Shown: positions 6,979 through 29,543, numbered from the stretch's first letter. The stretch: 32,000 nt of DNA from Candidatus Thorarchaeota archaeon (GCA_008080745.1 SHMX01000005.1:90001-122000), one strand, 5' to 3'. Made by a program: numbers and translations. The notes: generated by a model from the sequence alone, not told the origin.

Positions 6979-8154
6979 ATGAGAGTCTTTGTCGTTCAAA
7001 ATGTTAGTATGACTCGTCATATGGCTCTTTCTACCTATCTGAGAAATTTTGTAAGTTCCTTATCTCAAATTGATTATCTTGACATAACGGTGCTGACATC
7101 AGAAGGGATTAATAAGAATGCAGATGATTCTGACCACAATATTATCTCCTCTGGAACTGACCTTTATACATTATCTGGAAATTTGTATTTCATTTTCTGG
7201 TCGTTATATACACTATTCCGATGTTCCTTACAAGGGCATATTGATGTTATCCATTGCCTGTATCCCTCTTCATCAACATTAGGTTGTTTACTGTTCAAGT
7301 ATCTATTCAGCCCAAAAACGAAAATTGTGTATGATATTCGCAGTCCTTGGATTATTATGAGCACAAAGCGTGGAAAAATTAGAGGCAGCATGAAGATTTT
7401 CTTTCAGGCAGGTGCTCTAGTATTAGAACGAATTCTATTGAGAATAGTTGATGCTGTTGTATTCATCACCGATGGTCTTCGTAGATATTATGCACAATTG
7501 GGGTTAGAACCTCCAAAAATTTGGATAACATCACCCTCTGGAGTGGATACCGAACATTTTCAACCGAGGGAATCAAACACACTACGAGAGACAATCGGGG
7601 TTGAATCCAGCAGGAAAATATTAGGATATGCCGGAGGGATTGCAGTCACTAGAGAACTCTCTTTTGTTGTGCTATCTTTTAGAAAACTCCAAGAAGAAAC
7701 AAATCAGTCTTGGGCTTTGGTCTTTGTTGGTGACGGCGATAACTTACTAGGTCTGAAACGTCTTGTTCATGATTATCAAATACCTCAAGTTTATTTTGTG
7801 GGCAAAGTATCTTATGATTTGATTCCGGAAATGATTGCCGACTTTGATGTAAGTGTGTGTCATCTCCCTCAAACACCTCTTTTTGATACCTCGTTCCCAA
7901 TGAAAGTTCTCGAGTACCTCGCTTGTGGTGTGCCTGTAATAATGTCCGATATGCCCGCTCATCAAGAATTAGATAAACGATTAAATGGGACATATCTATA
8001 CGATTTTGATGAAACCGATTTCACCAATGCGGCAATCGATGCAGTCCAGTATAATTCGGTGGATACCAGTCAACTAAAATTCTATTCATGGACGGAAATC
8101 GCTTCTAGGATATCCAGATTATATTCTCATCTTATGGTCAAACAATCCCACTAA
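6979..8154 (+). CDS. Glycosyltransferase family 4
   Basis: Motifs PSGVD, GYAGGI, FVGDG and SFPMKVLEYLACG. GAGGA lies upstream of the ATG. Confidence 0.88.
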   Translation: MRVFVVQNVSMTRHMALSTYLRNFVSSLSQIDYLDITVLTSEGINKNADDSDHNIISSGTDLYTLSGNLYFIFWSLYTLFRCSLQGHIDVIHCLYPSSSTLGCLLFKYLFSPKTKIVYDIRSPWIIMSTKRGKIRGSMKIFFQAGALVLERILLRIVDAVVFITDGLRRYYAQLGLEPPKIWITSPSGVDTEHFQPRESNTLRETIGVESSRKILGYAGGIAVTRELSFVVLSFRKLQEETNQSWALVFVGDGDNLLGLKRLVHDYQIPQVYFVGKVSYDLIPEMIADFDVSVCHLPQTPLFDTSFPMKVLEYLACGVPVIMSDMPAHQELDKRLNGTYLYDFDETDFTNAAIDAVQYNSVDTSQLKFYSWTEIASRISRLYSHLMVKQSH

Positions 8155-9472
8155 TGGTTGAGCTGCCTATTGCTCTATATGTGATATTTTTTGGGATTTC
8201 TGTATTAACGAAGACCCTTCGTCCATCCACTAGATATTTCTCTCTCATATTTTCAGTGATTTTCACAAGTCCTATGGATCTATATTCCTTCCAATCGGTC
8301 ATTAGGAATGCCAAATACGAATCTCTCGTGCAGTCCTCTATCGAATCGCATACAGAAAATAACTGTGCAATTTCATTTGGTACTATTTTGAAATTTACCA
8401 CGGGATCATGCACATGTATATCTCCACCATAAGATGCTAAGCGTTGAATTAATGGAATGCTTGGCGAGTCTCTAATATCATCAGTATCTGCCTTGAATGC
8501 CATCCCTAGAATTGAAATTTTCTTCCCCTTTAGTTCAGATAGAGGTATACCTACGAGGGAAAGAAGTCTGTCCGTTGTACTTCTATTGACTTTTTGGACT
8601 GATTCTAATAGGTTCATGGGGAGCTCTCTTTGCCGCCCAAGATGATATAATCCACTAACATCCTTAGGAAGACATGATCCACCGAAACCTAGTCCTGGTC
8701 TAAGGTGACTATCACATATACGATGGTCTGCAACTACACCGTCCATGACATCATCAATATTGACGTGTGGTATCTTTTCTGCCAAGCTTGCCATCTCATT
8801 CGCGAAAGAAATCTTGGTTGCTAAGAATGAGTTACTTGCGTATTTACACATTTCTGCAGATTCGATAGACATGTGTATTACCGGTGGGTTCTCTCTTTTG
8901 ATGCATGGTAGAATCGCATCTTTATATAGATTATACACCCATTGGTCTGATGCACCTATAATCACTCTATCTGGATAGCGTAGGTCATATATTGCATGTC
9001 CTTGCCGTAGAAATTCCGGTTGAAACACCACACCGAATCTTGTTGAATCAAATTGTTTTTGTAATCGGTCAATTACATATGTTCTGGTGGTTCCTGGAGG
9101 TACTGTGCTTCTCATTCCAATTATCACATAGTCATCAACATAACCATCAAAATTGGTTTCGATTGATTGCATCACAGAGTCCACAGCTTTCAAATCAACC
9201 GATCCATCATAACTAGAAGGAGTATTTACACAAATTAAAATCGCATCTTGAGGAGAATTTTTGTAATCAGAACCAACTGCCTTGAGTCTTCCTCTACTGA
9301 TTCCATCTCTTAATAAGGGTGCCAAATCCGGTTCTGCAATAGGGGTTTCTCCTGCATTGATTAGCTCTACCTTTCTCTCATCAATCTCGATAACTGTAAC
9401 ATCGTGATGTGTTGATAGGACCGCTGCTGTTGTTAATCCAACATATCCTGCACCGTATACCGTTATCTTCAA
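8138..9472 (-). CDS. ugd: UDP-glucose 6-dehydrogenase (UDP-glucose/GDP-mannose dehydrogenase family)
   Basis: Motifs GAGYVG, ICVNTP, RSTVPPGT, PEFLRQG, KYASNSFLATKISFANE, catalytic GFGGSCLPKD and AFKADTDDIRDSP. TTG start with AAGGTGG upstream. Confidence 0.93.
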   Translation of the reverse strand: MKITVYGAGYVGLTTAAVLSTHHDVTVIEIDERKVELINAGETPIAEPDLAPLLRDGISRGRLKAVGSDYKNSPQDAILICVNTPSSYDGSVDLKAVDSVMQSIETNFDGYVDDYVIIGMRSTVPPGTTRTYVIDRLQKQFDSTRFGVVFQPEFLRQGHAIYDLRYPDRVIIGASDQWVYNLYKDAILPCIKRENPPVIHMSIESAEMCKYASNSFLATKISFANEMASLAEKIPHVNIDDVMDGVVADHRICDSHLRPGLGFGGSCLPKDVSGLYHLGRQRELPMNLLESVQKVNRSTTDRLLSLVGIPLSELKGKKISILGMAFKADTDDIRDSPSIPLIQRLASYGGDIHVHDPVVNFKIVPNEIAQLFSVCDSIEDCTRDSYLAFLMTDWKEYRSIGLVKITENMREKYLVDGRRVFVNTEIPKNITYRAIGSSTISGIV

Positions 9473-10869: not shown

Positions 10870-11826
10870 ATGAAACGTATTCTAGTAACTGGAGCTGCAG
10901 GATTCATTGGAAGTCATCTATGTGAAAAGCTCCTGCAAAATGGAGAATTTGTTATTGGAATTGATAATTTCAATGATTATTACGACTCATCGGTAAAACG
11001 AAGAAATATACGTTTTAGCCAAAATCAGGAAAACTTTAGACTACATGAAGTTGACATTCGAAGTAATGAATTTCTAAATCTGATGAATGATTTAGATGTG
11101 GATCACATCGTTCATTTAGCAGCTCGTGCTGGTGTTATCCCTTCAGTTGAGAATCCAAATGCTACCTTTACCAATAATGTGATTGGCACTCAGAATATTC
11201 TAGAAGTATGTCGAAGATATGAGATTCCTAAGCTAACTGCTGCTTCTTCATCTTCCGTCTATGGAAGCAGAACAGGGGGTTCATTTAAAGAAACCGACAT
11301 GGTATCAACACCTGAGTCACCCTATGCGGCATCAAAGGTCATGAATGAAATAATGGGGTATGCTTTCAATAAGGCATATGGAACCAAAATGACTTTTCTA
11401 CGTTTCTTTACTGTTTACGGCCCAAGACAAAGGCCGGATATGGCAATTCATGCCTTCGTTAGGCGAATTGTTATTGATAAACACCTCACCGTCTATGGTA
11501 GCCCCAAGACATCTCGTGATTATACGTACATCGATGACATCGTTTCTGGTGTAATTTCCGCAATAAATTACGATGGCGATTACGACATCTTCAACTTGGG
11601 AAATTCATCACCCGTTTTCTTAGGAGATTTGGTTGATATTATTCTTGAATTAACTGATACTAATGTAGATGTAGAATGGCTTCCTGGCCGGGTTGGTGAT
11701 GTACCTATGACCTATGCTGATATCTCAAAAGCGGAAAACATACTAGGTTATTCGCCAGACACATCAATTCGGGATGGGGTAGAGAATTTCGTTAAATGGT
11801 TCCATGAGGTAACTGATTTAATCTGA
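10870..11826 (+). CDS. NAD-dependent epimerase, UDP-glucuronate 4-epimerase (CapI/Uge/GAE)-like
   Basis: Motifs TGAAGFIGSHL, HLAARAGV, SSSSVYG, YAASK and RFFTVYGPRQRPDMA, the last typical of GlcA 4-epimerases. It lies close to ugd. Confidence 0.85.
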   Translation: MKRILVTGAAGFIGSHLCEKLLQNGEFVIGIDNFNDYYDSSVKRRNIRFSQNQENFRLHEVDIRSNEFLNLMNDLDVDHIVHLAARAGVIPSVENPNATFTNNVIGTQNILEVCRRYEIPKLTAASSSSVYGSRTGGSFKETDMVSTPESPYAASKVMNEIMGYAFNKAYGTKMTFLRFFTVYGPRQRPDMAIHAFVRRIVIDKHLTVYGSPKTSRDYTYIDDIVSGVISAINYDGDYDIFNLGNSSPVFLGDLVDIILELTDTNVDVEWLPGRVGDVPMTYADISKAENILGYSPDTSIRDGVENFVKWFHEVTDLI

Positions 11827-12327: not shown

Positions 12328-14196
12328 ATGGTCGGCACGGTAACATGGATTCCTACGTTGTTTGAATTCGTAGTTCTGACCTTCGTTGCTATATGTTATC
12401 TTCTACCAGGTATTCTTCTTGGTGATATTTTATTCCGACAGAAAAGAAAACTTTGGCGAATTTCTCTGGGCACAAGTATCATTCTTACATATTATATTAT
12501 CATTGGATTCATCTTATCTTCGCTAGCTCTCCTAGTTGAAACAATCTATGCACTCATCTGGTTTGGCACCCTATTTTGCATTGGTATTCCTTGGATTCTT
12601 TCTCGCCGAGATTCTCTCCATCTTGAACTGAACGAAGACACAAAGAAACTTGGAGTATTCATATTTACTGTTTTTCTATTTCTTTTCTTAGCCTACTTCT
12701 CTTGGGAGGGAAAAAATCATGGTGTTGGTGGTTGGGATCGTTCTGAGCATGTGGTCAAACTTCTTTATCTGGTATATCATAATACAATTCCAGAAACTGA
12801 GATAGGTATGCTAACAAATGCATTCTACCCTCAAGGACTCAATCTGAATCTTTTCATGTTTTACTCATTAACGCACACCATTAACCACCAAATAGTATTG
12901 CAGATGATAATTGTTTGGTATTTTGCTGCAAATCTCGCAGCACTTGTTATTCCTCTTGCAGCTGTAGCTTCAGAGATAAAATCTGATATCCGTCTTGTAA
13001 TGTTGACAGTTTTCTGCTATATCCCTGGGAGCTATCTCCTTATTTTCGAATCCATGCCTTCCAGTCTTGCTATGTTCTTGGTAGGAAATATTCTCCTTCT
13101 ATCAATAACTGAAAAACAAACACTAAGATTCATTCCTATCAAAATCCTACTATTATTAGGTGTGATTGCGATACATCTAGTAATTTTTCTCTATACTAGT
13201 TTGATTCTGATTGGTATTGCTATCAGCCGATTTAGATATCCCCGCCAAATGTTTGTAGGAATAATTACTAGTTTCATTTCTCTAATTTTGGCCGGACTTT
13301 TCTATGCTGGATTACTCTTCACTACGGAGCCATCTCTTTTATGGGGTACAATAGAGTTTGCCTTTAATGCCCAAAATCCAATTCCTCGTTCTACTCTTCC
13401 TCTACTACAATTCAATGTCTTTTCACTTCTTCCAACCCGTTTCTCTGGATTCAGCTTCTATCTATTCACAATTATGGGAATCCTTCCTGTATTTCTGCTT
13501 GGATTGTATAATGTTTTTAGAGAGAAACATTGGGGGTTGGCTGGATTATGTCTTGTTTCTATTTACATCTCATTAGCAGAATTTGCAAGATTCAATAATA
13601 GGGTGCGTTTCTTCATGCTTTATCCTGTTGCAATCATTAGTGCTATTGGGATTCTTGTATTGATTGATATTATTAGGTCCAGAAATTGGAGTGATACTAT
13701 ATCTCTCTTTCATCCGAAACAAGCTGCTACATTGGTTATCTCACTTATTGTTCTCTCCTCTGTTTTCACATGTGTTTCATTTGCATCTGCCGGATATGGT
13801 AATGCGACAAGCAGCTGGGCTGGTAGGGATCATACATTTTTGGATAATGGAGTGTTTTTATGTGTGGGATGGATGCATTTGGCCGGTCTAAATGATATTG
13901 GGATTATAGCTACACCTCACGATGCAGTATACTATCAAATTTTTGAATCATTATCCAATAACAAAATTTTGATGGGATCTACATGGGACTCTCCTCAAAG
14001 TTTTGCTGATGTTCGACTACTATTCAATGACACTACCGATTCTACCATTATTCAGGAAATCGTTTCCAATTACCATATTGAAGCTTTCCTGGTTCGTGGT
14101 GATGATGCATCTTATGATCACATCCTTGAGATATATTCTGGCACTACACTATTTTACGGGCCTTACGATTATGTGGTTGGTATGTTATCATACTAA
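12328..14196 (+). CDS. Polytopic membrane protein, putative GT-C fold glycosyltransferase
   Basis: Many TM segments, N-terminal 'YLLPG' helix, first external loop 'GWDRSEH...FYPQG', and a C-terminal soluble domain ending in 'LFN...IVSNYHIEAFLV'. GGAG lies upstream. Confidence 0.65.
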   Translation: MVGTVTWIPTLFEFVVLTFVAICYLLPGILLGDILFRQKRKLWRISLGTSIILTYYIIIGFILSSLALLVETIYALIWFGTLFCIGIPWILSRRDSLHLELNEDTKKLGVFIFTVFLFLFLAYFSWEGKNHGVGGWDRSEHVVKLLYLVYHNTIPETEIGMLTNAFYPQGLNLNLFMFYSLTHTINHQIVLQMIIVWYFAANLAALVIPLAAVASEIKSDIRLVMLTVFCYIPGSYLLIFESMPSSLAMFLVGNILLLSITEKQTLRFIPIKILLLLGVIAIHLVIFLYTSLILIGIAISRFRYPRQMFVGIITSFISLILAGLFYAGLLFTTEPSLLWGTIEFAFNAQNPIPRSTLPLLQFNVFSLLPTRFSGFSFYLFTIMGILPVFLLGLYNVFREKHWGLAGLCLVSIYISLAEFARFNNRVRFFMLYPVAIISAIGILVLIDIIRSRNWSDTISLFHPKQAATLVISLIVLSSVFTCVSFASAGYGNATSSWAGRDHTFLDNGVFLCVGWMHLAGLNDIGIIATPHDAVYYQIFESLSNNKILMGSTWDSPQSFADVRLLFNDTTDSTIIQEIVSNYHIEAFLVRGDDASYDHILEIYSGTTLFYGPYDYVVGMLSY

Positions 14197-14289: not shown

Positions 14290-15786
14290 ATGTCTGGCGA
14301 ACAAATAGCAAAATCTGAAAAACCAACGAAGAAAAGCTATGTTCGTTCCGGATTAATCTTCATGACCCTTTCGCTTGCAGCACATAAAGGACTTTTATTT
14401 ATCCTCCGTATTCTTTTAGCACGATATCTGTCAGTCGGAGAATATGGTCTTGTTACCTACTGTTGGGGCACAGGAACAACTATTGGTTTTCTTCTAATGT
14501 TTGGACGGGAACATGATGCAGTTGTAGACATCCCCCGAATGAGTCCTAACGAGTTATCCAAAGAAACCAAATATCTCCTAAAAATTGCGATTGGTATTGG
14601 TGTGGTTTTTCTATGGGGGACTTTATCTATTCTCATTACTACCAATGTAGAACTTAGAATTTGGGCTCTGGTTGGTTATGCATTATCTAATCTAATTTTC
14701 CAGATGGAATACTACACTCTTATCAGCACGAAGAGTTTCAAATCACATCTCGTACTAACATCGATTTTTAATGGGGGATCTGTTCTTGCTGTTATCATTC
14801 TTGGACAAATGTCCATTATAACCCCTCAAAATGCAATACTCTCGATACTGGTATTATCAACTGTAGCGAGCGTTTTTGGTGCTATTCTAATTCGTATTAT
14901 TGGAACAGTCGATGAAAAACAGCATGAGATAAAGATCGAATCCAAACGTGTTTGGAGCTTCTCCCGCTTTGAATCTTCAAATCTTCATTACTTCACTGCT
15001 GATATCTGTACAACTCTAATTCCACTTCTTCCAGTTCTTCTACTTGATTTCTTTGCAGGGTACGAAGAGGTTGGTTTTTTTGGACTTTCTCTATCTTTGT
15101 ATAGGGCATCTGTAATTATTGCTGTGATAATCAATATAACTTATGGCCCCGGACTATCAAAAACTTATATTCAAAATAAATCAGAATATTCACGACTATT
15201 CCGGGAAAGTTTTCAACTAACTGTGTTTCTTCAAGGTGCTGGAGCAATAGGTTTAGGTATGCTTGCTGGTCCCGTGATATCTGTTTTAGCTGATGTCCGT
15301 TATTTAGATTCTATCAATGTTCTACAAATTTTACTATTTGGTGCGTGTTTCGAAGCACTATATTTTGTTTCGAGTTCAGTTCTTCGAACCGCAGGTCATT
15401 CCTCCACCCTATCCAGAATCAATATTGTTGCTCTAGGGGTTTTTGTAATCATTGGCCCAATTTCGGTAGCACTTATAGGTCTACAGGGTGCGGCTTTATC
15501 CTATGCGATTGTTGTTGGCGTCCAGGCTTCTTGTAGTTTTACTGCAGTTTGGCTCAACAAGAACACATATCCAGAGAGTGCTTTGAAAAGCAGCCTTCTT
15601 CAACGTGTATTTTTACTATCTCTTATTCCAAGTGTTTTCCTGAGTTTAGTGGTGTTTTCTGGAGTGGGAATCTCGTTAGCTTGGTTGATTGTTTTTCTTG
15701 CAATTTACTACCTAGTAAGTCACGGGTTAGATGTGCTCAAACTTACTGATGTTCGTGATTTTCTTTTATCTGGAAGTTTTGAATAG
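14290..15786 (+). CDS. Wzx/MATE-like oligosaccharide flippase
   Basis: Motif 'RILLARYLSVGEYG', about 12-14 TM segments and 'EEVGFF' in the second half. GGGTGA lies upstream of ATG 14290. Confidence 0.85.
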   Translation: MSGEQIAKSEKPTKKSYVRSGLIFMTLSLAAHKGLLFILRILLARYLSVGEYGLVTYCWGTGTTIGFLLMFGREHDAVVDIPRMSPNELSKETKYLLKIAIGIGVVFLWGTLSILITTNVELRIWALVGYALSNLIFQMEYYTLISTKSFKSHLVLTSIFNGGSVLAVIILGQMSIITPQNAILSILVLSTVASVFGAILIRIIGTVDEKQHEIKIESKRVWSFSRFESSNLHYFTADICTTLIPLLPVLLLDFFAGYEEVGFFGLSLSLYRASVIIAVIINITYGPGLSKTYIQNKSEYSRLFRESFQLTVFLQGAGAIGLGMLAGPVISVLADVRYLDSINVLQILLFGACFEALYFVSSSVLRTAGHSSTLSRINIVALGVFVIIGPISVALIGLQGAALSYAIVVGVQASCSFTAVWLNKNTYPESALKSSLLQRVFLLSLIPSVFLSLVVFSGVGISLAWLIVFLAIYYLVSHGLDVLKLTDVRDFLLSGSFE

Positions 15787-15895
15787 AATTAGTCATTTTC
15801 TAGTATTTAGATGATTGAGGTGTATGTCCATAATGACTATTAGGTTGAATGTACTCCAAAATTTTACTATTCCAAAATATCTGTATGTATCATTA

Positions 15896-15910
15896 TTTCA
15901 TACTATGAAA
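15896..15910. promoter_or_regulatory. Perfect 7-1-7 palindrome (TTTCATA-C-TATGAAA), operator-like, upstream of ald
   Basis: Read directly from the sequence, 31 nt upstream of ATG 15942. Confidence 0.35.
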
Positions 15911-15941
15911 ATCATAAGTCCTTCAATAGGTGTTCCCCGTC

Positions 15942-17084
15942 ATGATTATTGGCAGTCCTAAAGAAATCAAAATTGGCGAAGCCAGAGTAGGTATGACTCC
16001 TCTTATGGTTCGCGAACTAAATAATGCCGGCCACGAAATAGTTGTTGAAAATGGTCTTGGAGAGTTATCTGGTCACTCAGATACAGAATATGAAGAAGCT
16101 GGAGCCACACTCGCAAAAAAGCAACGAGTCTTTGATGAAGCAGAATTCATTGTGAAATTCAAGAACCCGTTTGAAAAGGAATTGAAATACTTTCATGAAG
16201 GTCAGATATTATTTACCTATTTACACCTTGATGAAAACGCACCCCCCTCCTACACAGAATCACTTTTGAATCTTGGAATCACAGGAATCGCATATGAATG
16301 GGTCGAGCTTGATGATGGTTCACATCCTCTTTTAGATCCGATGAGCCATGTAACTGGTATTGTTGTAGCCCAAAAAGCGATGGATCTAATTACATATCCT
16401 AAAGGAAAAGCTTTGATGGTAGGACATATAGAACCTGGTATCCCATCTGCTCGTGTAACAATTGTGGGTGGGGGTCATATTGGACTTATGACTGCAAAGA
16501 CCTTTTTGGGAATCAATGCTGATGTGACTGTGGTCGATAAACATCCTGAAACACTTGTTGAGCGGCTTTCGAGATTTGTCCCTGGTGATATTGCCAAACG
16601 AGTCAAGGGTGTGTTATCCACAAATGAAAACTTGGTTTCAATTATTCCCAGTACTGATATCCTAATTAACGCGGCTGTTCGGCGTCCGGATTTCAAACAA
16701 CCTCATCTTATCACCAAGGAGATGATTCTGACTATGGAGCCGGGCTCTGTAGTAATCGATGCTACTGCGTGTGACAAAGACATGCTTGAAACATCCCTTT
16801 CAACCACTCACCTCGATCCTATTTATGACGTTGAAGGAATCATTCATTATTGTGTTGATAATGTTCCATCGGGTGTGGCAAGAACTTCCACTGCGTTATT
16901 AACAAAATACACCTTTCCATACATTCGGGAGATTGCAAATAAGGGCATCAAGAAGGCATTGGAGGATAATATTCCACTGCAGCGTGGTGTTCAGTTCATC
17001 CGAGATAAGTTTGTACATGAATATGTGGCGAAGAAGAAAGGATTTGAACTAAGTGATTTTGATGAAGCACTTGCCCTATTGTAA
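15942..17084 (+). CDS. ald: Alanine dehydrogenase-like protein (AlaDH/PNT family), divergent
   Basis: Motifs IIGSPKEIK.GEARV, KFKNP, FTYLHL, PLLDPMS, GGGHIG, YCVDNVP and RTST. ATG 15942 has AGGTG upstream. Confidence 0.85.
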   Translation: MIIGSPKEIKIGEARVGMTPLMVRELNNAGHEIVVENGLGELSGHSDTEYEEAGATLAKKQRVFDEAEFIVKFKNPFEKELKYFHEGQILFTYLHLDENAPPSYTESLLNLGITGIAYEWVELDDGSHPLLDPMSHVTGIVVAQKAMDLITYPKGKALMVGHIEPGIPSARVTIVGGGHIGLMTAKTFLGINADVTVVDKHPETLVERLSRFVPGDIAKRVKGVLSTNENLVSIIPSTDILINAAVRRPDFKQPHLITKEMILTMEPGSVVIDATACDKDMLETSLSTTHLDPIYDVEGIIHYCVDNVPSGVARTSTALLTKYTFPYIREIANKGIKKALEDNIPLQRGVQFIRDKFVHEYVAKKKGFELSDFDEALALL

Positions 17085-17127
17085 TGTGATGTAACTCTTA
17101 TAGATTGTATTTAGGTTTGATAATGGA

Positions 17128-18531
17128 GTGATGCACGTATTGCTAAGATTTGTAACCACCAAGTTCATGCTTCCCGTTTTTCAAATGATGAGTGGAAGTA
17201 AATTTCTTAGTTATATGAAACAACTACGGAAAAGCCAATGGTGGACCCTGTCAGAATTGAACAAGTTACGGAATAAGCGACTAAGATGTCTGATTAATCA
17301 TGCATATGATACAGTTCCTTATTATAGACGTTTATTCCGACAGCGTGGTCTTACACCCCAAGATATTCGCACGGTTGAGGATTTGGTCAAACTTCCAGTC
17401 ATGACAAAGGACATAATACGTAGAAATTTTGATGAGCTTGTATCTCGAAAGATTCCAAAGGGAAAGGTGAAACTCCGAGCCACTGGGGGATCTACTGGTG
17501 AACCCCTCAATTTTTATGTATCTCAGGAAACAATGGATTATTCAGAGGCAACCCGATTACGTGGCTGGGAGATAGCAGGTTACCAGTTTGGAGAAAAATC
17601 AGCCAAACTTTGGGCATCCACATTTGATGCTAAGAAACTGTTCTCTCTAAAATCAAGGTTTAGGAGATATCTTCATCGTCATTTGCTTCTTGATTCCAAC
17701 GTACTAACTCCTACCACTATGAAAATCTATACCGAACAACTCCGTCAATACAAACCTACTCTTCTGATGGGATATACTTCATCTCTATTCAAATTAGCAG
17801 AATTCATTCTAAATTCTGATGATATTGAACCTCTCAGTATACCTGCAATAGTAACAGGTGCAGAAACACTTTACCCTCATTGGAGACCATTACTGCGTAA
17901 TGCATTCGGTGGAGAAGTTTTCAACCACTATCTAACCAGAGAAACCTGTGTGTCATCTGATGAATGCCCTTCTCATGAGGGCTCTCATGTATCAATTGAA
18001 GTTGGCCACTTAGAGATCTTGTCCGAAAATGAAAGTGTTATTGATGAACACGGCAGAGTTCTTGTTACTGATTTCTTTAATTTTGCAATGCCATTCATTC
18101 GATTTGACCTTCAAGATGTTGCATTATTGAAATCCGAGAGATGTTCATGTGGAAGATCTCTTCCCTTGTTAGATAAAATTCTTGGCAGAATCAATGATCT
18201 TATTGTTTCTCCTACTGGTGTGACTTATAATCCCGTATTCTTCATGTGGTTGGTCTATCGAAATCCATGGAAGGCAGACAAGCTAGAAGGAATTCAAGAT
18301 TACCAAATAGTTCAGCAAAAAATCGATTATCTTATTGTTAATATAGTGCCCACTGAGGACATGCCCATTGAAATACCCGATTTGATCCGAGAGAATATTT
18401 TACGAGAAACCAAAAACGAATTTGAAGTGGAAATAAGACTGGTAGACGAATTGCCATTGACTCAAGCTGGTAAACGAAGATATGTAATTTCAGAAATCAG
18501 TACGACACCGACCTTCAATTTCGAGAACTAG
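17128..18531 (+). CDS. PaaK/CapK-like adenylate-forming ligase (phenylacetate-CoA ligase family)
   Basis: Motifs HAYDTVPYYR, LPVMTK, P-loop ATGGSTGEP, AMPFIRF, GRINDL, YQIVQ and C-terminal GKRR. Confidence 0.88.
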   Translation: MMHVLLRFVTTKFMLPVFQMMSGSKFLSYMKQLRKSQWWTLSELNKLRNKRLRCLINHAYDTVPYYRRLFRQRGLTPQDIRTVEDLVKLPVMTKDIIRRNFDELVSRKIPKGKVKLRATGGSTGEPLNFYVSQETMDYSEATRLRGWEIAGYQFGEKSAKLWASTFDAKKLFSLKSRFRRYLHRHLLLDSNVLTPTTMKIYTEQLRQYKPTLLMGYTSSLFKLAEFILNSDDIEPLSIPAIVTGAETLYPHWRPLLRNAFGGEVFNHYLTRETCVSSDECPSHEGSHVSIEVGHLEILSENESVIDEHGRVLVTDFFNFAMPFIRFDLQDVALLKSERCSCGRSLPLLDKILGRINDLIVSPTGVTYNPVFFMWLVYRNPWKADKLEGIQDYQIVQQKIDYLIVNIVPTEDMPIEIPDLIRENILRETKNEFEVEIRLVDELPLTQAGKRRYVISEISTTPTFNFEN

Positions 18532-18618: not shown

Positions 18619-21234
18619 TTGAATCAATCTCAATCAAATAACGAGATTGTTGGACACAATCCCATAAGAGACTGTTCAATCCATGTTGGCTCCAATGTAC
18701 TCTATCGTATAGGTGCTTACCAATTTCTAACTACAATTCTATTTGTTGCGCTTCAAATTTTGCCAAATTCAATATTTCTTTTCCCTTTGCAACTAATATC
18801 CGGATTCTGTTCCATCATCATATTTCCTGGCTTTCTATTGAATCAGCTCTTTATCCCGATAGAATACAGAAATATTGGGACGATTATCTTAGTCGCCTGT
18901 GTGATTACATTATTTGAAATACAAATTGCCTTTACTATTACTCTGTTGACTGGTTTTGTATTTCCCCTTTATGTATGGGTTGTTGGATTCAACTCTATTG
19001 TTTTCATGATTGCATTTTACAGATTATTGCAGGAGGAAAACATATCGAGTGATTCTGTTATTTTCTCACTTTCTTCGAAGTTGAATCAGATAGCGGTTAT
19101 CGCATTAATCCTTAGAGTGATTATGTTATATTTTGGACAAAACTCCATCGGTCCAGATGCTGCTCTATATGCTGATTATGCACGAAATATGCTTGAAGGC
19201 GATTTTTCGAGTTCTATTCTTAATGATGTAGCTGTTCAAACCCTCTGGAATGGCGTACAATATGTCTGGCATCAGGGTTTTGTGTATTTCACAGGCTTAT
19301 CGTGGTTGCTTTTTGAACCAACCGCAATTGGTACTAATATTCTGCTTGTTATTATTGGCACCTTGCTGTTATATCCTGTTTATACAATCACCGACCATTT
19401 TTTTGGAACCAAAGCAGCTTATTATACCTCGATTTTGGTAGCAATCCACCCACTTTTCATTTATCATTCCGCCATTGGATATGGGCCAGAGATAGTTAGT
19501 CTGTTTTTCCTTCTCTACGCTGCAATCTTCTTAATTCTTGGTCGAGAGAAGGGTGTCCATTTCAGTTTACTCTCTGGAGTTATTGTTGGACTAATCGATG
19601 TAATCTGGTATGCCAATTTCTACATATTCTGTATTCTTCTTCCTTTTGCTCTTTTGTTCTTTAAATTCACTAACTGGTTCGATACAATTCTTTTTGGTGT
19701 CAACCTCTGTGTTATTCTCGCTATTCGGTTGTTTTTGTCCAATATTCAAATTGTTATAATTGGCATTCTGGTAATAATTGTTCTAAACATAATAGGTACT
19801 AAAATCTCGTCTTATAATGTGATTACTTATGCGCCTTTTCTAACAGCAGTTCTTTCAACTATGTTTTTCTGGAAGTGGTCAACATATCTTACACAAAAGG
19901 TAGAAACACCTGATTCGGGTCGAAAAATACTTGATGTCATTTTTGGGTACATAGACCCCATAGTGCTTCTCCGATTTGCTTTCTTTGTGTTTTTCCATCT
20001 CACACCTATCTTGTTCGGTTTATTGATTTGGACCTTACTCAGAAAACCATCTCGAGTGACTACATCATTTTTCACTATTGGTCTACTTGGGGCTGTTGGG
20101 ACTTTGAAAGTATTTGGACTATTCAGCAAAGATACTCTTCTACCATATTATCTCTATTCAGATTCTCGTTTCTTCTTATTCATAATTATAATGTTTATAA
20201 TCGGACTCGGTCCAATTCTTATTAATTTCAAAGAATATCTTACGTATCACCTTTACGAAAAAACTCTATTTTTGAAGATTTCACCAGAAAAGCGGGACAT
20301 AATGATTACTTTTGGAATTATAGCCATTGGATTTATCCCCTCTGTATTAGTTTTCCCGGTGGGTTTGGATCTAATAAATGGCCCTGAAAGATATGGCTGG
20401 ACTGCTTTGGACGAGAAAATTGAATCTCTTGATGCTGATGCCATCTATCTCTGTGATCGCGCTAGGGAGTTCACATGGTTTACAAGAAAACAATCAGTTC
20501 AATTGAGATTTAGCGAAACATATCTACCTGATTTGAATTCTAGTAGAGAACTACTAACATTCGTAAGCCTGTATCATACAAAATATCTGCTTGTTGACGA
20601 TTACTTCTATCAACATTGGCATAACTTGGAATTTCTCTATCTTGGAAATATGTCTGTTGGCACTAGAGTATTTTTGAATTTTTCAAGTATTCCTTATTCT
20701 AATATATTAGATTCAGAGGTTTATTCTACTTCGCTTACTCTCGTGGCAAAAACTGAGCCTAATAAATATGGTAGATATGCTCGGATTTTCGAATTTGGGA
20801 ATAGTTCCTTGACTAGGGTGTGGAACGAAATTCCATCAGATCAAGAGTGGACAGTTTCAGCAGGTGGGGCTATTGAAAATCGTACTGATTCTTTGCAGTT
20901 TATATTGGGTCCCAATCAATCGAAGTTGCATATTGCACGGTCTGAAGGGAATGAGGTCAATACCAAGATACAGCAAGGCTTTCTGATATTGGACTTTTCT
21001 TATGCAGAAGCTCAAATAGAATCAATCAAGGTCTGGAATCACTCTGATTATTTTGTTTCATCTCTGGATTACCTGGGGGCGGGGCGGTATTATGGTTTCT
21101 TTACCAATACTACCATATCAAATATTACAATCACCGTTTCTGGAAATCCCGGGGATTCTATTATATTAAAAGGCGGCTCGATTTGGGATTCTCATACTCT
21201 CTACGATTTCCCTCTCAAAACATACCAGTTTTGA
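18619..21234 (+). CDS. Large polytopic GT-C fold glycosyltransferase-like protein (ArnT/PMT_2-like) with a C-terminal extracellular domain
   Basis: Many TM segments, first-loop acidic motif GPDAALYADYA, LAIHP..IYHS, GYGPEI, and a hydrophilic C-terminal ~250 aa. Paralog of 21249..23855. Confidence 0.72.
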   Translation: MNQSQSNNEIVGHNPIRDCSIHVGSNVLYRIGAYQFLTTILFVALQILPNSIFLFPLQLISGFCSIIIFPGFLLNQLFIPIEYRNIGTIILVACVITLFEIQIAFTITLLTGFVFPLYVWVVGFNSIVFMIAFYRLLQEENISSDSVIFSLSSKLNQIAVIALILRVIMLYFGQNSIGPDAALYADYARNMLEGDFSSSILNDVAVQTLWNGVQYVWHQGFVYFTGLSWLLFEPTAIGTNILLVIIGTLLLYPVYTITDHFFGTKAAYYTSILVAIHPLFIYHSAIGYGPEIVSLFFLLYAAIFLILGREKGVHFSLLSGVIVGLIDVIWYANFYIFCILLPFALLFFKFTNWFDTILFGVNLCVILAIRLFLSNIQIVIIGILVIIVLNIIGTKISSYNVITYAPFLTAVLSTMFFWKWSTYLTQKVETPDSGRKILDVIFGYIDPIVLLRFAFFVFFHLTPILFGLLIWTLLRKPSRVTTSFFTIGLLGAVGTLKVFGLFSKDTLLPYYLYSDSRFFLFIIIMFIIGLGPILINFKEYLTYHLYEKTLFLKISPEKRDIMITFGIIAIGFIPSVLVFPVGLDLINGPERYGWTALDEKIESLDADAIYLCDRAREFTWFTRKQSVQLRFSETYLPDLNSSRELLTFVSLYHTKYLLVDDYFYQHWHNLEFLYLGNMSVGTRVFLNFSSIPYSNILDSEVYSTSLTLVAKTEPNKYGRYARIFEFGNSSLTRVWNEIPSDQEWTVSAGGAIENRTDSLQFILGPNQSKLHIARSEGNEVNTKIQQGFLILDFSYAEAQIESIKVWNHSDYFVSSLDYLGAGRYYGFFTNTTISNITITVSGNPGDSIILKGGSIWDSHTLYDFPLKTYQF
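20155..20174 (+). repeat. 20-nt exact inverted repeat, copy 1 (TATTCAGATTCTCGTTTCTT)
   Basis: Exact reverse complement at 22276..22295; both copies encode YSDSRF in the paralogous GT-C genes. Confidence 0.75.
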
Positions 21235-21248
21235 ATTCATTGGACTAG

Positions 21249-23855
21249 TTAGCTCATAACTGATTGCCAATTTGATATTTGACCGATAGATATAGAACAA
21301 TTAGCCTCTCCTTGGATTACTATTTTAATGTCACCTATCTCTATATTTCCTACATCAAATATCCACAGAGATTCATCAATTTGAAACGCACATCCTAGAA
21401 GATTCTCAGAATCGTCCCATATACTTACACGAGTTATTGTAGCATTTATCTCACTGACACGTAAACTCACAAAACCCGTCTTTACATGCCAATCTAAGCT
21501 ATAATCATCTTTTACTGTAGTAAAAGTATAATTTCTATTTTGTCCGATTGTCAAAATAGTATAGTCATCAATAAATGATAATGTCCCATTGTTACCAGCT
21601 TCCCACTGATTTGGCGTGATTACCTTTACATCTGTTGCTGCATAAGTAATATTGGAAAATTGAAAGATACGAACGTCAATGTGTCCAGATGAAGATCTTA
21701 GTTCGTCCACTAGTTTAACAGATTGAAGCATCACGGACTCGTTATCATTAATCTGACTTGCTGGAGCATAATCGAGCGGTATTGAAGAATTGATTTCCAT
21801 CGCATCGAATAGAAGTGACTCAAAAACTCCCCAACGAGCTACTGTAATCCGATCAATTACTAAATATTCCACATTAAATCGATTTACTAGCTGCAGGATT
21901 TGTTGTTCAGCTTCAGCATCTGTCAAGCCTGCTTTTGTTAGCTCAAGAACTACTGTTTGTCTGTGAGTAATCCAAGCAAACTCTCGTGCCCTGTCAACAA
22001 GAAACTTGGTATCTTCATTTCCAATCTGTTCAATTGCATCTTCAATTCCTGCCCAACCATATCGTTTCTCTAGCTGAATCAGATCATACCCTGTTGGCAT
22101 CATCAGGAAGCCTGGAATAAAGCCGACCATTGAAATAAGGCACACTCCTAGAATCTTTCGGTTGTTTTCCCTACTCAAAAAATGCAGGCTCAACTCTATA
22201 CTCGATATCTCTGGGACCTCGATTGACCTGAGATACGAACAAGCTATAAACACCATAAGAGTACTCATCAGGATAAAGAAACGAGAATCTGAATATATGT
22301 AAAATATTTGTAAACTTCCAGGAATTACACTGAATACTTTCAATGTACCTAATGCAACGACCAAGCAACTGAGTAGCAACGAAATATTTCTTTCAGATCT
22401 ACCTCTCCACAATACAATTCCCGAAATAATCAATATGGGTAGTGAAACATGGAAAATAAAGAAGAATACAAAACTCAATGTTACCTCTATTGGAATTGGA
22501 CTGAAAATGATGGGAATTATCGGAGTTTCGGTAATTGTATTTTGTGTGGGAATCGAATTAATTACCTGAAGAGGAAATCTCCAAAGGGTGATAATAGCTA
22601 GAGTAAGCCCAATGAATGCTGAAAACTCTCTGAAACTAGCGAAGGATTGAATATTCAACAATATGAATAAAGAAAGTATTACTGTACTTATTCCCACATA
22701 ATAGATAATTGTCAATCGAAACAGTATTTTGAGTAATAGAATACTCATCATTAATATACTGATGAGAAAGAACTCTCTTCTATCTAGTTTTAACATTCCA
22801 TATGCCATAAAGGGGATTATGATTGACACTATATAGAAATTTGAATACCATATTACATCGATTAATCCCAAAAGAATTCCCGCAAAACTTAATGTTTTGA
22901 TATCATGCTTTTTGTGGAAGAATAACACAGCAAAAATCAATAAAAACAGTATGCTAAGAATCTCGGGACCATATCCTACAGTAGAATGGAAGATTAATAA
23001 TGGATTAAATGACAATAAAACTGATGCAAATATTGCTGATACTTCGCCATACAATGCATTTACCAAATGGATACCTATTAGAGCCAATATGATTCCAATT
23101 ATGGGAAGGATGATAACCGGCCCCACGTCAAAGGGTGGCAACATTAGAAATGACACAGCCAAAGCATAAGCATACCCTTGATGAATGATATATTGCACTC
23201 CATTCCAAAGATTGTATACTGAAACGTCATCAATTAGGGTTGTATCATATGATCCACTTAGAATTCCATTTGCATAGTTTGCAAAAAGAGCGCCATCAGG
23301 GGATAATGCATTATAGTTCAAAAATGCAAGAATAACCCGCAAGAAAAAACCGAAAATAATTACAAGGATGATAGCTTTATTCTTGGGAATGCGTAATGTA
23401 TTGGGTAACATCTTATCTATTTCTTCATCCTTAGTAATGTATGCACCTAACATAACAACTATGTTGATAGTTGGTAGTAGAATACTGACTGGAAAACTAA
23501 AGCCAATTGAAAGCTTTGTAAGAAACCCTATGTGTATTTCAAGGATTGCAATAGCTATTCCAATCCCAGAGGACATTCCAAGTCCTTGGTATTTCTTAGG
23601 AACCACTTGTGTTGAAATGACCATGCCTGGAAATAATACAAGCGAGAGGAATGCAACAGGTGTTTGGAGAACGAGTAGAGTGTGATTCATCCTAAAATAA
23701 ATGAGTATCCAGAATAACAGTGTACTGAATACTTGATGAACTATTATTCCCTTACCTGTTAGAAGAAATTGTCTATAGTATTCTAATTTCGGGCGAATTG
23801 AGATATTCTTAGTTCTCACACCAGTTTCGCGAATTGCCAATTTCATGGTCACCAT
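21249..23855 (-). CDS. Large polytopic GT-C fold glycosyltransferase-like protein, paralog of 18619..21234
   Basis: Motifs SPDGALFANYA, LWNGVQY..HQG, GYGPEIL, GLIDVIWYSNFY, YSDSRFF and DRAREFAW. The start is uncertain (ATG 23855 or 23846; the ORF is open to 23912). Confidence 0.72.
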   Translation of the reverse strand: MVTMKLAIRETGVRTKNISIRPKLEYYRQFLLTGKGIIVHQVFSTLLFWILIYFRMNHTLLVLQTPVAFLSLVLFPGMVISTQVVPKKYQGLGMSSGIGIAIAILEIHIGFLTKLSIGFSFPVSILLPTINIVVMLGAYITKDEEIDKMLPNTLRIPKNKAIILVIIFGFFLRVILAFLNYNALSPDGALFANYANGILSGSYDTTLIDDVSVYNLWNGVQYIIHQGYAYALAVSFLMLPPFDVGPVIILPIIGIILALIGIHLVNALYGEVSAIFASVLLSFNPLLIFHSTVGYGPEILSILFLLIFAVLFFHKKHDIKTLSFAGILLGLIDVIWYSNFYIVSIIIPFMAYGMLKLDRREFFLISILMMSILLLKILFRLTIIYYVGISTVILSLFILLNIQSFASFREFSAFIGLTLAIITLWRFPLQVINSIPTQNTITETPIIPIIFSPIPIEVTLSFVFFFIFHVSLPILIISGIVLWRGRSERNISLLLSCLVVALGTLKVFSVIPGSLQIFYIYSDSRFFILMSTLMVFIACSYLRSIEVPEISSIELSLHFLSRENNRKILGVCLISMVGFIPGFLMMPTGYDLIQLEKRYGWAGIEDAIEQIGNEDTKFLVDRAREFAWITHRQTVVLELTKAGLTDAEAEQQILQLVNRFNVEYLVIDRITVARWGVFESLLFDAMEINSSIPLDYAPASQINDNESVMLQSVKLVDELRSSSGHIDVRIFQFSNITYAATDVKVITPNQWEAGNNGTLSFIDDYTILTIGQNRNYTFTTVKDDYSLDWHVKTGFVSLRVSEINATITRVSIWDDSENLLGCAFQIDESLWIFDVGNIEIGDIKIVIQGEANCSISIGQISNWQSVMS
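22276..22295 (-). repeat. 20-nt exact inverted repeat, copy 2
   Basis: AAGAAACGAGAATCTGAATA is the reverse complement of 20155..20174. Confidence 0.75.
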
Positions 23856-23932
23856 TGGCTCCCTAATTTGGTGGCCAACACAGAACTTCTTAAAAGGTAC
23901 TCGAAAACACACATTTCTTGTATAGAAACTAC

Positions 23933-23946: not shown

Positions 23947-25125
23947 CTGCGAATTTGTCTGATTGCCCCTATGTTTCCTCCTATTCAGAGTGGTTCTTCC
24001 CATTATGCAGAACGTTTGGCGGAAGGACTTGCACAACGCGGTCACGATGTATATGTCATCACATCTTCTGGTGCAGAAATTTCAGATATGAACGATTATC
24101 GTGTCATAGAGATTCCGTCAATAACGACTCCTACGACACCAATGACCCATAATTATGCTCTCCCCTTCAATTTCTTTCCTCTAAATATCCCTCTTCTTAG
24201 AAACATAATCAAGAAGATATCCCCGGATATTGTTCATCTAAACAGCAATTTTTTAGACCTTTGTTTAGGTGCTATGATTGCTGCAAAAGGTCTAGGTATA
24301 GCTACGGTATTAACAGTTCATACCCGTCTTATACATGCAAATAAGTTTCTCAATCCTTTTTTCCGAGCAGTGGATAAATCCTTGATTAAACAGATTTTAC
24401 ACAAGGTGGATGCTTTTGTTGCACTAGACAAACAGATGTATAACTATATTCTAAACACATATGATTTGTCAAAAGATAAGATTCATCCAATTCCCTTAGC
24501 TATCGATCTTGATGAACTCTTGTCTACTCCCACAAAACCAACATTATTAGACACCTTGGAATCACAAAATATCATTGCATCTATTTCTCATTTGACCCTT
24601 CTCAAATCTCCTCGTACATTATTAGAAGCTGTATCTATTATCAAAGACGATTTTGAGGACCTCATAGTTGCATTTGCTGGTCGTGTATGCGATACTAGAT
24701 TTGTGAACTGGGCAAAAGAGCTAGACGTATCTGAACATGTGGTCTTTATGGGTGAAATTCCCCACCATCTTATTCCCTCCGTTCTCAAACGTAGTTGTAT
24801 TGAAGCACACTCATTGGATTATCGAACGGGATTTGATAATGCCTCGATTGAGGCGATGTCACTAGGACTACCAGTAATATCTTGTGTTCCAGAGGATAAT
24901 TTTTTGAGAGAATGGTTGCACAACTGGGAAAATGTAATTCTGGTCGAGCCTTATTCTCCTAATATGGTTGCTGAGGCTCTATACCGTTTGCTAAGCAACC
25001 AAGAGCTAATGCAGAACATCTCGAAAAATGCTGGGCGATCAGCGAAACAATTTTTTTCAATTGAACGTATGCTTGATGATTTTGAACAGCTCTATGCTAA
25101 TTTGGTTGGAGATTTAAACCAATAA
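23947..25125 (+). CDS. Glycosyltransferase family 4 (probable CTG start)
   Basis: An in-frame CTG at 23947 gives (M)RICLIAPMFPP, 7 nt after GAGGAGG. Motifs IVHL, TVHT, IPLAID and FDNASIEAMSLG. Confidence 0.88.
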   Translation: MRICLIAPMFPPIQSGSSHYAERLAEGLAQRGHDVYVITSSGAEISDMNDYRVIEIPSITTPTTPMTHNYALPFNFFPLNIPLLRNIIKKISPDIVHLNSNFLDLCLGAMIAAKGLGIATVLTVHTRLIHANKFLNPFFRAVDKSLIKQILHKVDAFVALDKQMYNYILNTYDLSKDKIHPIPLAIDLDELLSTPTKPTLLDTLESQNIIASISHLTLLKSPRTLLEAVSIIKDDFEDLIVAFAGRVCDTRFVNWAKELDVSEHVVFMGEIPHHLIPSVLKRSCIEAHSLDYRTGFDNASIEAMSLGLPVISCVPEDNFLREWLHNWENVILVEPYSPNMVAEALYRLLSNQELMQNISKNAGRSAKQFFSIERMLDDFEQLYANLVGDLNQ

Positions 25126-26018
25126 TGCAGAGTTGTTTGATAGTCTGATGGTTTTAGACCCCTCTTTTGATATAATCTCATTGCGGCAGTATTATTGAGT
25201 TGGGTTCCTACACTGAGGGTTCGATGCTCATCAATCACATCGGATATCGCTTTATCCAACAATGCACCTCCTAAACCTCTACGTGAATACTTTGGATGAA
25301 CTGCTATCAATCCAATTCTTAGTTCGTCTTTTTCTTCACTCTGATTCGAGCCGAATTTTTCATGAAGCGTGATATAGCCTCCTATCTGATTTCCTTCTTC
25401 AATTACATATACCCTTGAATTATCCGAGTAGAATAGATTCTTTATCCATATAGCATGCATCGCATCAGCTCTTTGTTTTCCAAATTGCTTGTCAGTATGA
25501 AAACGATCCCTGTAGAATGCAATTGCAGAAATCTCCATCAAGTTCCAAATATCTGACTCTTCAGCACTCCGCACCTTTTTGAGAATTCCGTCTTCTCTTG
25601 GAATCAATGTGGAATGACTCGCTCTCAGCGTGCAACTCCAATCATACGATTGGAAGCCATTTGCCTCTAATTGCCGAATCCAATCATCATCATTTAGGGA
25701 TAGACGACTTGAAACAAAAGTTGCACTTGTATCTTTGAGAATACTCATAGATTTCTTTACCATCACTCCGATTTTTTTGTCATTGAAAACCTTTCTAGCT
25801 AATCGAATGGGTTTTACATGATAGCATTCGAACTCGAAAAAAGTAGAATCCCAGTCCAGATGTTCAAGGTAAGATATCATCTGGATAGATTCGTTATCTG
25901 TTATACATGGAAACTCGGAAAAAACATTATTTTGGCTGATAATGTTTTCTTTTCCAACTAGACGTAGTGAAGACTTTATTTTCTCAATTGAACAATTTTT
26001 AACAGTAGGGGATACCAA
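25092..26018 (-). CDS. GNAT N-acyltransferase, TDP-fucosamine acetyltransferase (WecD/RffC)-like
   Basis: Motifs LDWDSTFF, RFHTD..F, LIAVHPKYSRRGLGGAL (acyl-CoA loop) and VGTQLNNTAAMRLY. TTG start with GAGGT upstream. Confidence 0.82.
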   Translation of the reverse strand: MVSPTVKNCSIEKIKSSLRLVGKENIISQNNVFSEFPCITDNESIQMISYLEHLDWDSTFFEFECYHVKPIRLARKVFNDKKIGVMVKKSMSILKDTSATFVSSRLSLNDDDWIRQLEANGFQSYDWSCTLRASHSTLIPREDGILKKVRSAEESDIWNLMEISAIAFYRDRFHTDKQFGKQRADAMHAIWIKNLFYSDNSRVYVIEEGNQIGGYITLHEKFGSNQSEEKDELRIGLIAVHPKYSRRGLGGALLDKAISDVIDEHRTLSVGTQLNNTAAMRLYQKRGLKPSDYQTTLHYWFKSPTKLA

Positions 26019-26122
26019 GTCCGTTACCTCATAATACCGCTATATCTTATTTTTACCCATCCAACGAATAGCCAATAGCTTATTATAATCTATACTACTC
26101 ACTGGCAATGGCGTGAAATTCT

Positions 26123-27247: not shown

Positions 27248-27310
27248 CACTAAAGGGCTGATTAACATTTCATTAGAAAATAATTTGTATCAAGAATTCT
27301 GTGAGGGATT

Positions 27311-28474: not shown

Positions 28475-28511
28475 CAATCTTTATCTTTGCTGATTTTTCC
28501 CACGGTTTGAA

Positions 28512-28520
28512 TTATATAAA
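28512..28520 (+). promoter_or_regulatory. TATA-box-like element upstream of the SDR gene
   Basis: TTATATAAA centred about 26 nt upstream of ATG 28542. Confidence 0.4.
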
Positions 28521-28541
28521 TTGAATAATGGTGGACAATCT

Positions 28542-29510: not shown

Positions 29511-29543
29511 GTATTCAATCCTTTCCTCTAAGGAGACCAGAAA

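Follow-up and report, generated by a model that had tools for sequence, protein, structure and literature searches.

The surface glycans of microbes change in charge and antigenicity when they are decorated with amino acids or opines, and the enzymes that install these groups are, to our knowledge, mostly unknown. In the capsule pathway of Campylobacter jejuni HS:2 (Cj1435-Cj1438), an ATP-grasp amidoligase joins a dedicated small amine, serinol or ethanolamine phosphate, which is produced via a transaminase and a phosphatase, to glucuronic acid (GlcA). Two members of the alanine dehydrogenase (AlaDH)/PNT superfamily, N5-(carboxyethyl)ornithine synthase (CEOS) of Lactococcus lactis and saccharopine dehydrogenase (Lys1), use NAD(P)H to condense a 2-oxo acid reductively with ornithine or lysine through the side-chain amine of the latter; neither, as far as we know, has been linked to glycan loci or amide ligases. 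Here we describe two adjacent genes, coding for an AlaDH-fold NAD(H) dehydrogenase (P0001) and a CapK/PaaK/VpsH-type adenylate-forming ligase (P0002), in a 32,000-nucleotide stretch of DNA from Candidatus Thorarchaeota archaeon (GCA_008080745.1, SHMX01000005.1:90001-122000; hereafter, the window, with positions counted from its first letter). We tentatively propose, while giving this interpretation somewhat less than an even chance, that the two proteins comprise a surface-glycan tailoring module in which a pyruvate-derived opine is amide-linked to a uronic acid. The C. jejuni pathway follows the same logic but includes no dehydrogenase, and the window ligase is of a different family; P0001 shares with CEOS and Lys1 the superfamily, with its Arg/Lys/His 2-oxo-acid site, and the proposed type of reaction, but is distant from them in sequence. 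The predicted product, a glycan that carries, through an amide bond, a carboxyethyl amino acid derived from pyruvate, is of the same class as two groups from enterobacteria, N-epsilon-[(S)-1-carboxyethyl]-N-alpha-(D-galacturonoyl)-L-lysine in the O14 antigen of Providencia rustigianii and alanopine in that of P. alcalifaciens O35 (PMC10609480). A literature search yielded nothing usable on AlaDH genes in O-antigen or capsule clusters or on the genes that make carboxyethyl-lysine or alanopine.

For the ligase half of the proposal, the best available precedent, by analogy, is VpsH, a PaaK/CapK-like protein encoded in the VPS locus of Vibrio cholerae, which genetic analysis showed to be required for the glycine amide on GulNAcA, with the VpsH-dependent addition of glycine occurring at the stage of the lipid-linked disaccharide (PMC13463779, mBio 2026). 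In both cases, a PaaK/CapK-like enzyme is encoded within a Wzx/Wzy-type glycan locus, and VpsH adds the amide before flipping; however, VpsH is bacterial, has no dehydrogenase partner, uses a common amino acid and is likened to P0002 by description and not by alignment. An earlier, sequence-only reading of the locus had assigned to the CapK-like protein the formation of an amide on a uronic acid and had known of no description of such a route for an archaeal glycan. The first idea gains a genetic precedent in VpsH, although which carboxylate is activated we can only infer; the second holds in part, given that amidation as such is known, both from VpsH and from the threonine uronamides of Methanococcus. 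What does appear to be undescribed is the dehydrogenase half, along with the regularity with which it is paired with amide ligases, and the ligase half belongs to a kind that is known only since VpsH (2026).

The genes for P0001 (15942-17084, + strand; the open reading frame opens with a GTG at 15930, and the ATG at 15942 is the likely start) and P0002 (17128-18531, + strand) follow a flippase gene on the same strand, and a gap of 43 nucleotides (17085-17127) separates the stop codon of P0001 from the start of P0002. This order, orientation and spacing had been noticed in the sequence-only reading, and both the coordinates of the open reading frames and the family matches agree with it. P0001 contains the Pfam domains AlaDh_PNT_N (9e-36) and AlaDh_PNT_C (1.1e-43), is 33-40% identical to L-alanine dehydrogenase and 36-40% to solved AlaDHs and, in an AF2 model with a pLDDT of 91.5, matches the solved AlaDHs 8hye, 2vhx and 2eez with Foldseek TM scores of 0.85-0.87. 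However, against TIGR00518, the alaDH equivalog model, it scores 300.8 bits, under the cut-off of 391.85. The related proteins described below behave similarly, with about 200 bits for the bacterial members, 354 for the type represented by locus L001 and 300-354 for the subclade that includes the window, and alaDH and pntA are the only NCBIfam models that the family matches.

Alignment of 57 members of this family with 19 canonical AlaDH sequences revealed a distinct signature that is captured by two peptides, YLH[LF]DEN and DATACD. The counterparts of Arg15, Lys75, Tyr94 and His96 of the Mycobacterium tuberculosis enzyme, that is, R19, K78, Y97 and H99 of P0001, are kept in the signature family as they are in canonical AlaDH (56-57 of the 57 members of the family, and every canonical sequence, have R19, K78 and H99), and so are P-M-S and the NAD-binding GxGxxG...D. 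The former four residues and P-M-S make up the pyruvate and side-chain pocket, which is thus retained, and the three-carbon unit would, by implication, come from pyruvate. By contrast, position 281, which corresponds to M. tuberculosis Asp270, is Cys in 55 of the 57 family members and Asp in each of the 19 canonical sequences. It is followed by Asp (53 of 57) where the canonical enzymes have Gln, and by x-Asp in place of Gly-Gly at positions 283-284, whereas the D-Q-G-G motif is present in all 19 canonical sequences. Moreover, the catalytic His is followed by D-E-N and a two-residue insertion, both absent from the canonical enzymes, Trp takes the place of Thr at position 124, an A-V-R-R segment that of V-L-(I/V)-P-G in loop L2, and Asp that of Ala or Thr at position 310. 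Altogether, D101, E102, N103, W124, R251, R252, D282, D284 and D310 are invariant or nearly so in the signature family. These changes all map within loops L1, L2 and L3, which are the least confident regions of the AF2 model of P0001, and together introduce six invariant charged residues, four of them acidic and two basic. In AlaDH, the same loops line the cleft, and mutation of Asp270 abolishes the activity (PMC4691113); the structure of a D270A mutant is also available (PDB 2vhv).

By these features, P0001 belongs to a family that has no name yet and is sister to alanine dehydrogenase. It is unlikely to be a plain AlaDH, considering its sub-cut-off TIGR00518 score, the Cys in place of Asp270 and the coexistence of this separate family with canonical AlaDH: in 3 of the 5 bacterial genomes tested, a signature member is found along with a canonical copy that is 47-55% identical to a Bacillus AlaDH. 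The NCBI pipeline (PGAP) labels plasmid-borne members of the family 'hypothetical protein' and the canonical copies 'ald', and the genomic contexts differ as well, glycan tailoring in the case of P0001 and nitrogen catabolism in the case of AlaDH. An uncharacterized sister family of a textbook enzyme, with such a clean swap in the active site, deserves attention in the biocatalysis of amines and opines.

The role of alanine supplier that the sequence-only reading gave to P0001 is, for the same reasons, probably not the correct one. Nevertheless, the simplest form of that idea, in which L-alanine is produced locally by a functional L-alanine dehydrogenase and is built by the CapK-like ligase into a HexA-6-(L-Ala) amide, has to be considered seriously even if it is, in our estimate, rather unlikely. 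The loss of an essential aspartate, together with some 12 further invariant changes in the active site, is hard to reconcile with it, although the Arg/Lys/His/Tyr pyruvate site is intact and the resemblance of P0001 to real AlaDHs in identity and fold extends to the pyruvate/NAD ternary complex of M. tuberculosis Rv2780 (2vhx; TM 0.87). The window's subclade keeps Asn311 and is the nearest to the canonical clan in a tree of the AlaDH family that we read as unrooted, with no claim of ancestry, a PhnW-like aminotransferase having acted as a false outgroup; P0001 could, for these reasons, still use ammonia. Alanine uronamides are known, for example, in Haemophilus influenzae type d (PMC10609480), but because alanine is a universal metabolite, a dedicated, tightly linked supply gene is difficult to justify.

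The second protein of the pair, P0002, is a predicted amide ligase that matches several NCBIfam models with E-values between 1e-21 and 1e-30 (FlxY, 2.3e-30; PaaK, 6e-26; F390 synthetase, 4e-23), all far under the equivalog cut-offs, and aligns with the solved PaaK structure 4r1l over residues 42-447 (4e-21). P0002 itself had no match in the copy of Pfam that we searched; precomputed annotation places PF27533 (CapK_C) on the partner in locus L004, which is 66% identical to P0002, and on the partners of the L001 type. P0002 harbors the P-loop TGGSTGEP, PFIRFDLQD, the GRINDLI hinge and the C-terminal TQAGKRR, and the 13 AlaDH-associated CapK-like partners that we aligned share T-G-(S/T)-T-G-x-P, P-(L/F)-I-R-(Y/F)...D, C-x-C-G-R, G-R-x-x-D and a C-terminal Lys. 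With each of the listed adenylation motifs present, P0002 should be a competent adenylating enzyme.

The pairing of the two genes is more than a chance juxtaposition: the closest relatives keep it, and over the family as a whole it is enriched. Next to the closest homologue of P0001 (73% identity), in the metagenomic locus L004, the CapK_C gene follows after 5 nucleotides, and a GT-C-like fragment precedes the pair. In a clade with 55% identity, represented by three contigs, the order is inverted, with the CapK_C gene followed, after a 12-nucleotide gap, by the AlaDH-like gene and a gene for an M14 peptidase, and a GT4 gene located upstream. Family-wide, a CapK-like or ATP-grasp ligase is encoded within 1.5 kb in 25 of the 58 non-identical signature loci, as opposed to none of the 29 canonical Asgard AlaDH loci, a contrast that does not translate into a formal probability because the loci are related. 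Thus, the cross-genome co-occurrence of AlaDH-like and CapK-like genes in glycan loci, which the sequence-only reading had suggested checking, turned out to reflect a conserved functional pair, and the flippase, which that reading had counted as part of the cassette, is a neighbor that lies outside it.

Clustering of the adjacent genes, combined with annotation of representatives, showed which proteins recur next to the signature gene. The most frequent immediate neighbor, found in 16 loci, is a 330-amino-acid ATP-grasp ligase of the ArgX/LysX/RimK/Ddl kind (AF2 and Foldseek, E 2e-15), followed by the CapK-like ligase in 12 loci, arginine dihydrolase in 6, arginase in 5 (one of these over the TIGR01229 cut-off) and a PGA_cap/MslH-like protein in 3-4. 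All five arginase loci carry genes for a CapK-like ligase, an ATP-grasp ligase or GT4 glycosyltransferases wherever the contig reaches past the pair. Genes of the saccharopine dehydrogenase family are found one or two genes away in 5 loci, a gene for an Orr-like ornithine racemase adjoins the signature gene in 2 loci, GT4 genes occur no more than three genes away in 12 loci, and Wzx-type flippases are encoded nearby in several. Two unrelated families of amide ligases, therefore, partner a single dehydrogenase family, and the presence of two unrelated, ATP-dependent ligases beside the same dehydrogenase in glycosyltransferase clusters argues strongly that the dehydrogenase makes or finishes the group that is attached. 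In practical terms, the locus provides a marker of two genes, one for a signature AlaDH-like protein and one for an amide ligase, that can be searched for in any genome.

The PGA_cap (CapA)/MslH-like proteins are encoded after CapK-AlaDH-like pairs in loci L061, L062, L069 and L043. Given that MslH epimerizes the C-terminal residue of a peptide, this protein might convert the amide-linked amino acid to the D form, and the possibility of such epimerization of a C-terminal amino acid fits the supply of alanine. The arginase and ornithine-enzyme neighbors, in contrast, find no explanation if alanine is the product. In the 55%-identical clade (L001-L003, L058), the gene that comes after the CapK-AlaDH-like pair encodes a protein of 870-879 amino acids with a Peptidase_M14 domain.

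Scanning with the two signature peptides identified 19 loci in isolate genomes and metagenome-assembled genomes and another 46 in metagenomes. The genomes that carry the signature include those of KSB1, Poribacteria, Planctomycetota, Bacteroidota, Cyanobacteriota, Thiotrichales, Bradyrhizobium, Methylobacterium and Pseudovibrio. P0001 is the sole AlaDH-family gene in its genome, and no gene of the signature type was found in the other 85 genomes of the Thorarchaeal family that were searched, including one from the same genus; because it is absent from these sister genomes, the signature gene is not a housekeeping one. The only AlaDH match among the 85, in genome G357, was examined as a candidate of the signature type and rejected, as it is a split gene with the canonical motifs YLHLAP... 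and DQGG. Also rejected was an apparent AlaDH fusion, the 828-amino-acid open reading frame of locus L068, whose N-terminus is a spurious extension in high-G+C DNA.

How the two enzymes might work together we infer step by step from the observed gene pair, its conservation and the active-site signature. The dehydrogenase would bind pyruvate and NAD(H) in the manner of alanine dehydrogenase, and its rebuilt, more charged amine side would accept not ammonia but the amine of a second amino acid, with ornithine and lysine as the likeliest candidates. Reduction of the resulting imine would yield an N-(1-carboxyethyl) amino acid, an 'opine'. The ligase, by analogy with VpsH, would adenylate, on a lipid-linked oligosaccharide, the carboxyl at C-6 of a uronic acid supplied by Ugd and pass the activated carboxyl to the alpha-amino group of the opine, to give a uronamide; the adjacent Wzx-type flippase could then flip the decorated unit. 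The expected product would resemble the N-epsilon-(1-carboxyethyl)-lysine uronamide of the Providencia O14 antigen.

The crux of this scheme is the nitrogen partner, for with ammonia the product would be alanine, and with the amine of an amino acid it would be an N-(1-carboxyethyl) amino acid. We lean slightly toward the latter, above all because of the recurrent arginase, arginine dihydrolase, ornithine racemase and saccharopine dehydrogenase neighbors and also because the amine side of the cleft is rebuilt and charged, the catalytic Asp is lost, the family coexists with canonical AlaDH and alanine needs no dedicated supply. Several considerations pull in the opposite direction. The Thorarchaeal locus itself contains no arginase gene, and the Bradyrhizobium-type members adjoin a gene for a PhnW-like pyruvate aminotransferase, the classical partner of true AlaDH. 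CEOS and saccharopine dehydrogenase are but distant relatives, likened to P0001 by description, the Asp-to-Cys swap is not a known feature of opine synthases, and the dehydrogenase family is known from sequence and genome context. On the ligase side, the uronic-acid substrate is deduced solely from the Ugd-like gene 6 kb away and from VpsH, and the evidence for amidation by VpsH is itself genetic (PMC13463779).

The ligase could also work in the reverse direction, adenylating the carboxyl of an amino acid made by the dehydrogenase and N-acylating with it a DegT-derived amino sugar, to give groups such as Qui4N acylated with alanine or alanopine. The usual substrate of PaaK-type enzymes is a small free acid, genes for a DegT aminotransferase and a GNAT protein are indeed present in the locus, and alanopine is N-linked to Qui4N in P. 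alcalifaciens O35 (PMC10609480). We nevertheless consider this scenario improbable: VpsH, the genetically defined CapK-like protein, amidates a sugar acid, the DegT gene is 9 kb away, next to a second CapK-like gene, and the alternative partner of the dehydrogenase, the ArgX/LysX/RimK-like ATP-grasp protein, is of a class whose members activate the carboxylate of a macromolecule and couple it to the amine of an amino acid. No more probable, in our view, is a looser link between the two proteins, with the dehydrogenase acting elsewhere, be it in reductive amination of a keto-sugar nucleotide, in conversion of ornithine (for example, cyclodeamination to proline) or in general nitrogen metabolism. 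That a Cys is conserved in place of the catalytic residue hints at another kind of chemistry, and the neighborhoods of the family are mixed, comprising saccharopine dehydrogenase with PhyH dioxygenases, an amidohydrolase with an SDR protein, and exporters. Yet, adjacency to an amide ligase is the commonest context and is kept through an inversion of gene order, the pyruvate-size pocket (Y97, P-M-S) is conserved, and the absence from sister genomes speaks against a housekeeping role.

If opine formation is what the family does, its implications extend beyond the Thorarchaeal locus. Speculatively, and with more doubt than conviction, the YLH[LF]DEN...DATACD family can be viewed as unrecognized opine-forming or amine-condensing dehydrogenases that, together with either ligase, would provide the missing route to N-(1-carboxyethyl) amino-acid decorations of glycans, from Asgard archaea to Bacteroidota, Planctomycetota and KSB1; the Cys would then be an element of a new mechanism. 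As for archaea, the N-glycans of Methanococcus are established to contain uronic acids amidated with threonine (PMC11407970), and a 304.127-Da sugar from an Asgard archaeon was read by its discoverers as HexNAc+Thr and is isobaric with HexA+Lys (PMC11284389). Taken together, these observations make amino-acid-decorated sugars plausible in this phylum; our search of the literature on AglU, the enzyme that adds threonine in Methanococcus, returned nothing usable. The module predicts specific mass shifts that glycoproteomics could look for in Asgard archaea, a group in which sugars modified with amino acids, their origin unknown, have recently been seen (PMC11284389).

The window (36-42% G+C) is a glycan-biosynthesis island. 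It encodes, besides the proteins already discussed, at least 9 GT4 proteins, one GT2, Ugd, two SDR proteins, a DegT, a GNAT, a second flippase and two GT-C-like proteins of about 870 amino acids. PaaA and PaaC were not found in the genome, which is 98% complete, whereas four control genomes were positive, so the locus is, as the sequence-only reading had it, a glycan-biosynthetic one that lacks genes for phenylacetate catabolism. That reading also named Ugd and a GlcA 4-epimerase-like enzyme, and here only the former label can be kept. The NDP-sugar 6-dehydrogenase (8138-9472, - strand) contains the three UDPG_MGDP_dh domains, scores 375 bits with TIGR03026, over the cut-off, and has the UDP-glucose 6-dehydrogenases AglM and TuaD as its top equivalogs; it is the likely source of the uronic acid. 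The SDR protein (10870-11826, + strand; Pfam Epimerase, 1.7e-57) can be described as a generic NDP-sugar epimerase or dehydratase, as it reaches no NCBIfam equivalog cut-off (with the TviC model, it scores 135 bits, where the cut-off is 760).

The gene upstream of the pair (14284/14290-15786, + strand) codes for a MOP/Wzx-type flippase of 500 amino acids with approximately 12 hydrophobic segments in the hydropathy profile. Its identity is derived from the Atlas comparison with Polysacc_synt/Wzx clusters (feature score 0.99, TM 0.76-0.79) and a weak NCBIfam match to Oglyco_Wzx (2.7e-5); Pfam gave no match, and BLASTP detected no similarity to the other flippase of the island. Inspection of the sequence shows an AT-rich gap of 143-155 nucleotides between the flippase gene and the AlaDH-like gene, and this spacer (15787-15941) may contain a separate, putative promoter for the AlaDH-like/ligase pair. 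Just upstream of the flippase gene, a 622-amino-acid open reading frame (12328-14196) has no match in Pfam or NCBIfam.

Directly downstream of the pair, two convergent genes (18619-23912) code for paralogous GT-C-like proteins. The first is a membrane protein of 871 amino acids (18619-21234, + strand) with a weak match to PMT_2, and the fragment that flanks the pair in the closest metagenomic homologue (L004:1-534) is 32% identical to it. Farther downstream, the second CapK-like ligase (29544-30884, + strand), which is 31% identical to P0002, is encoded within a block of GNAT, DegT, GT4 and SDR genes (25092-30884). With this ligase in a block of its own, the locus may install two different amide-linked groups.

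Some of the other loci with signature genes have distinctive gene sets of their own. In five loci from cyanobacteria and Thiotrichales (L042, L049, L054, L048 and L050), the signature gene is accompanied by a gene of the saccharopine dehydrogenase family and one or two PhyH dioxygenase genes, sometimes with a cupin gene, a set that resembles an undescribed pathway for an amino-acid-derived small molecule; in L054, the AlaDH-like open reading frame apparently runs on into a C-terminal SAM methyltransferase region. The Bradyrhizobium-type loci (L051, L052 and L090-L094) consist of genes for an EamA exporter, arginine dihydrolase, the signature AlaDH-like protein, the PhnW-like aminotransferase and an SDR protein. 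Finally, on the Mesorhizobium plasmid NZ_CP088152.1 (L105), a homologue with 78% identity is surrounded by LysR, FAD-oxidoreductase and ABC-permease genes, an arrangement that recalls opine catabolism.

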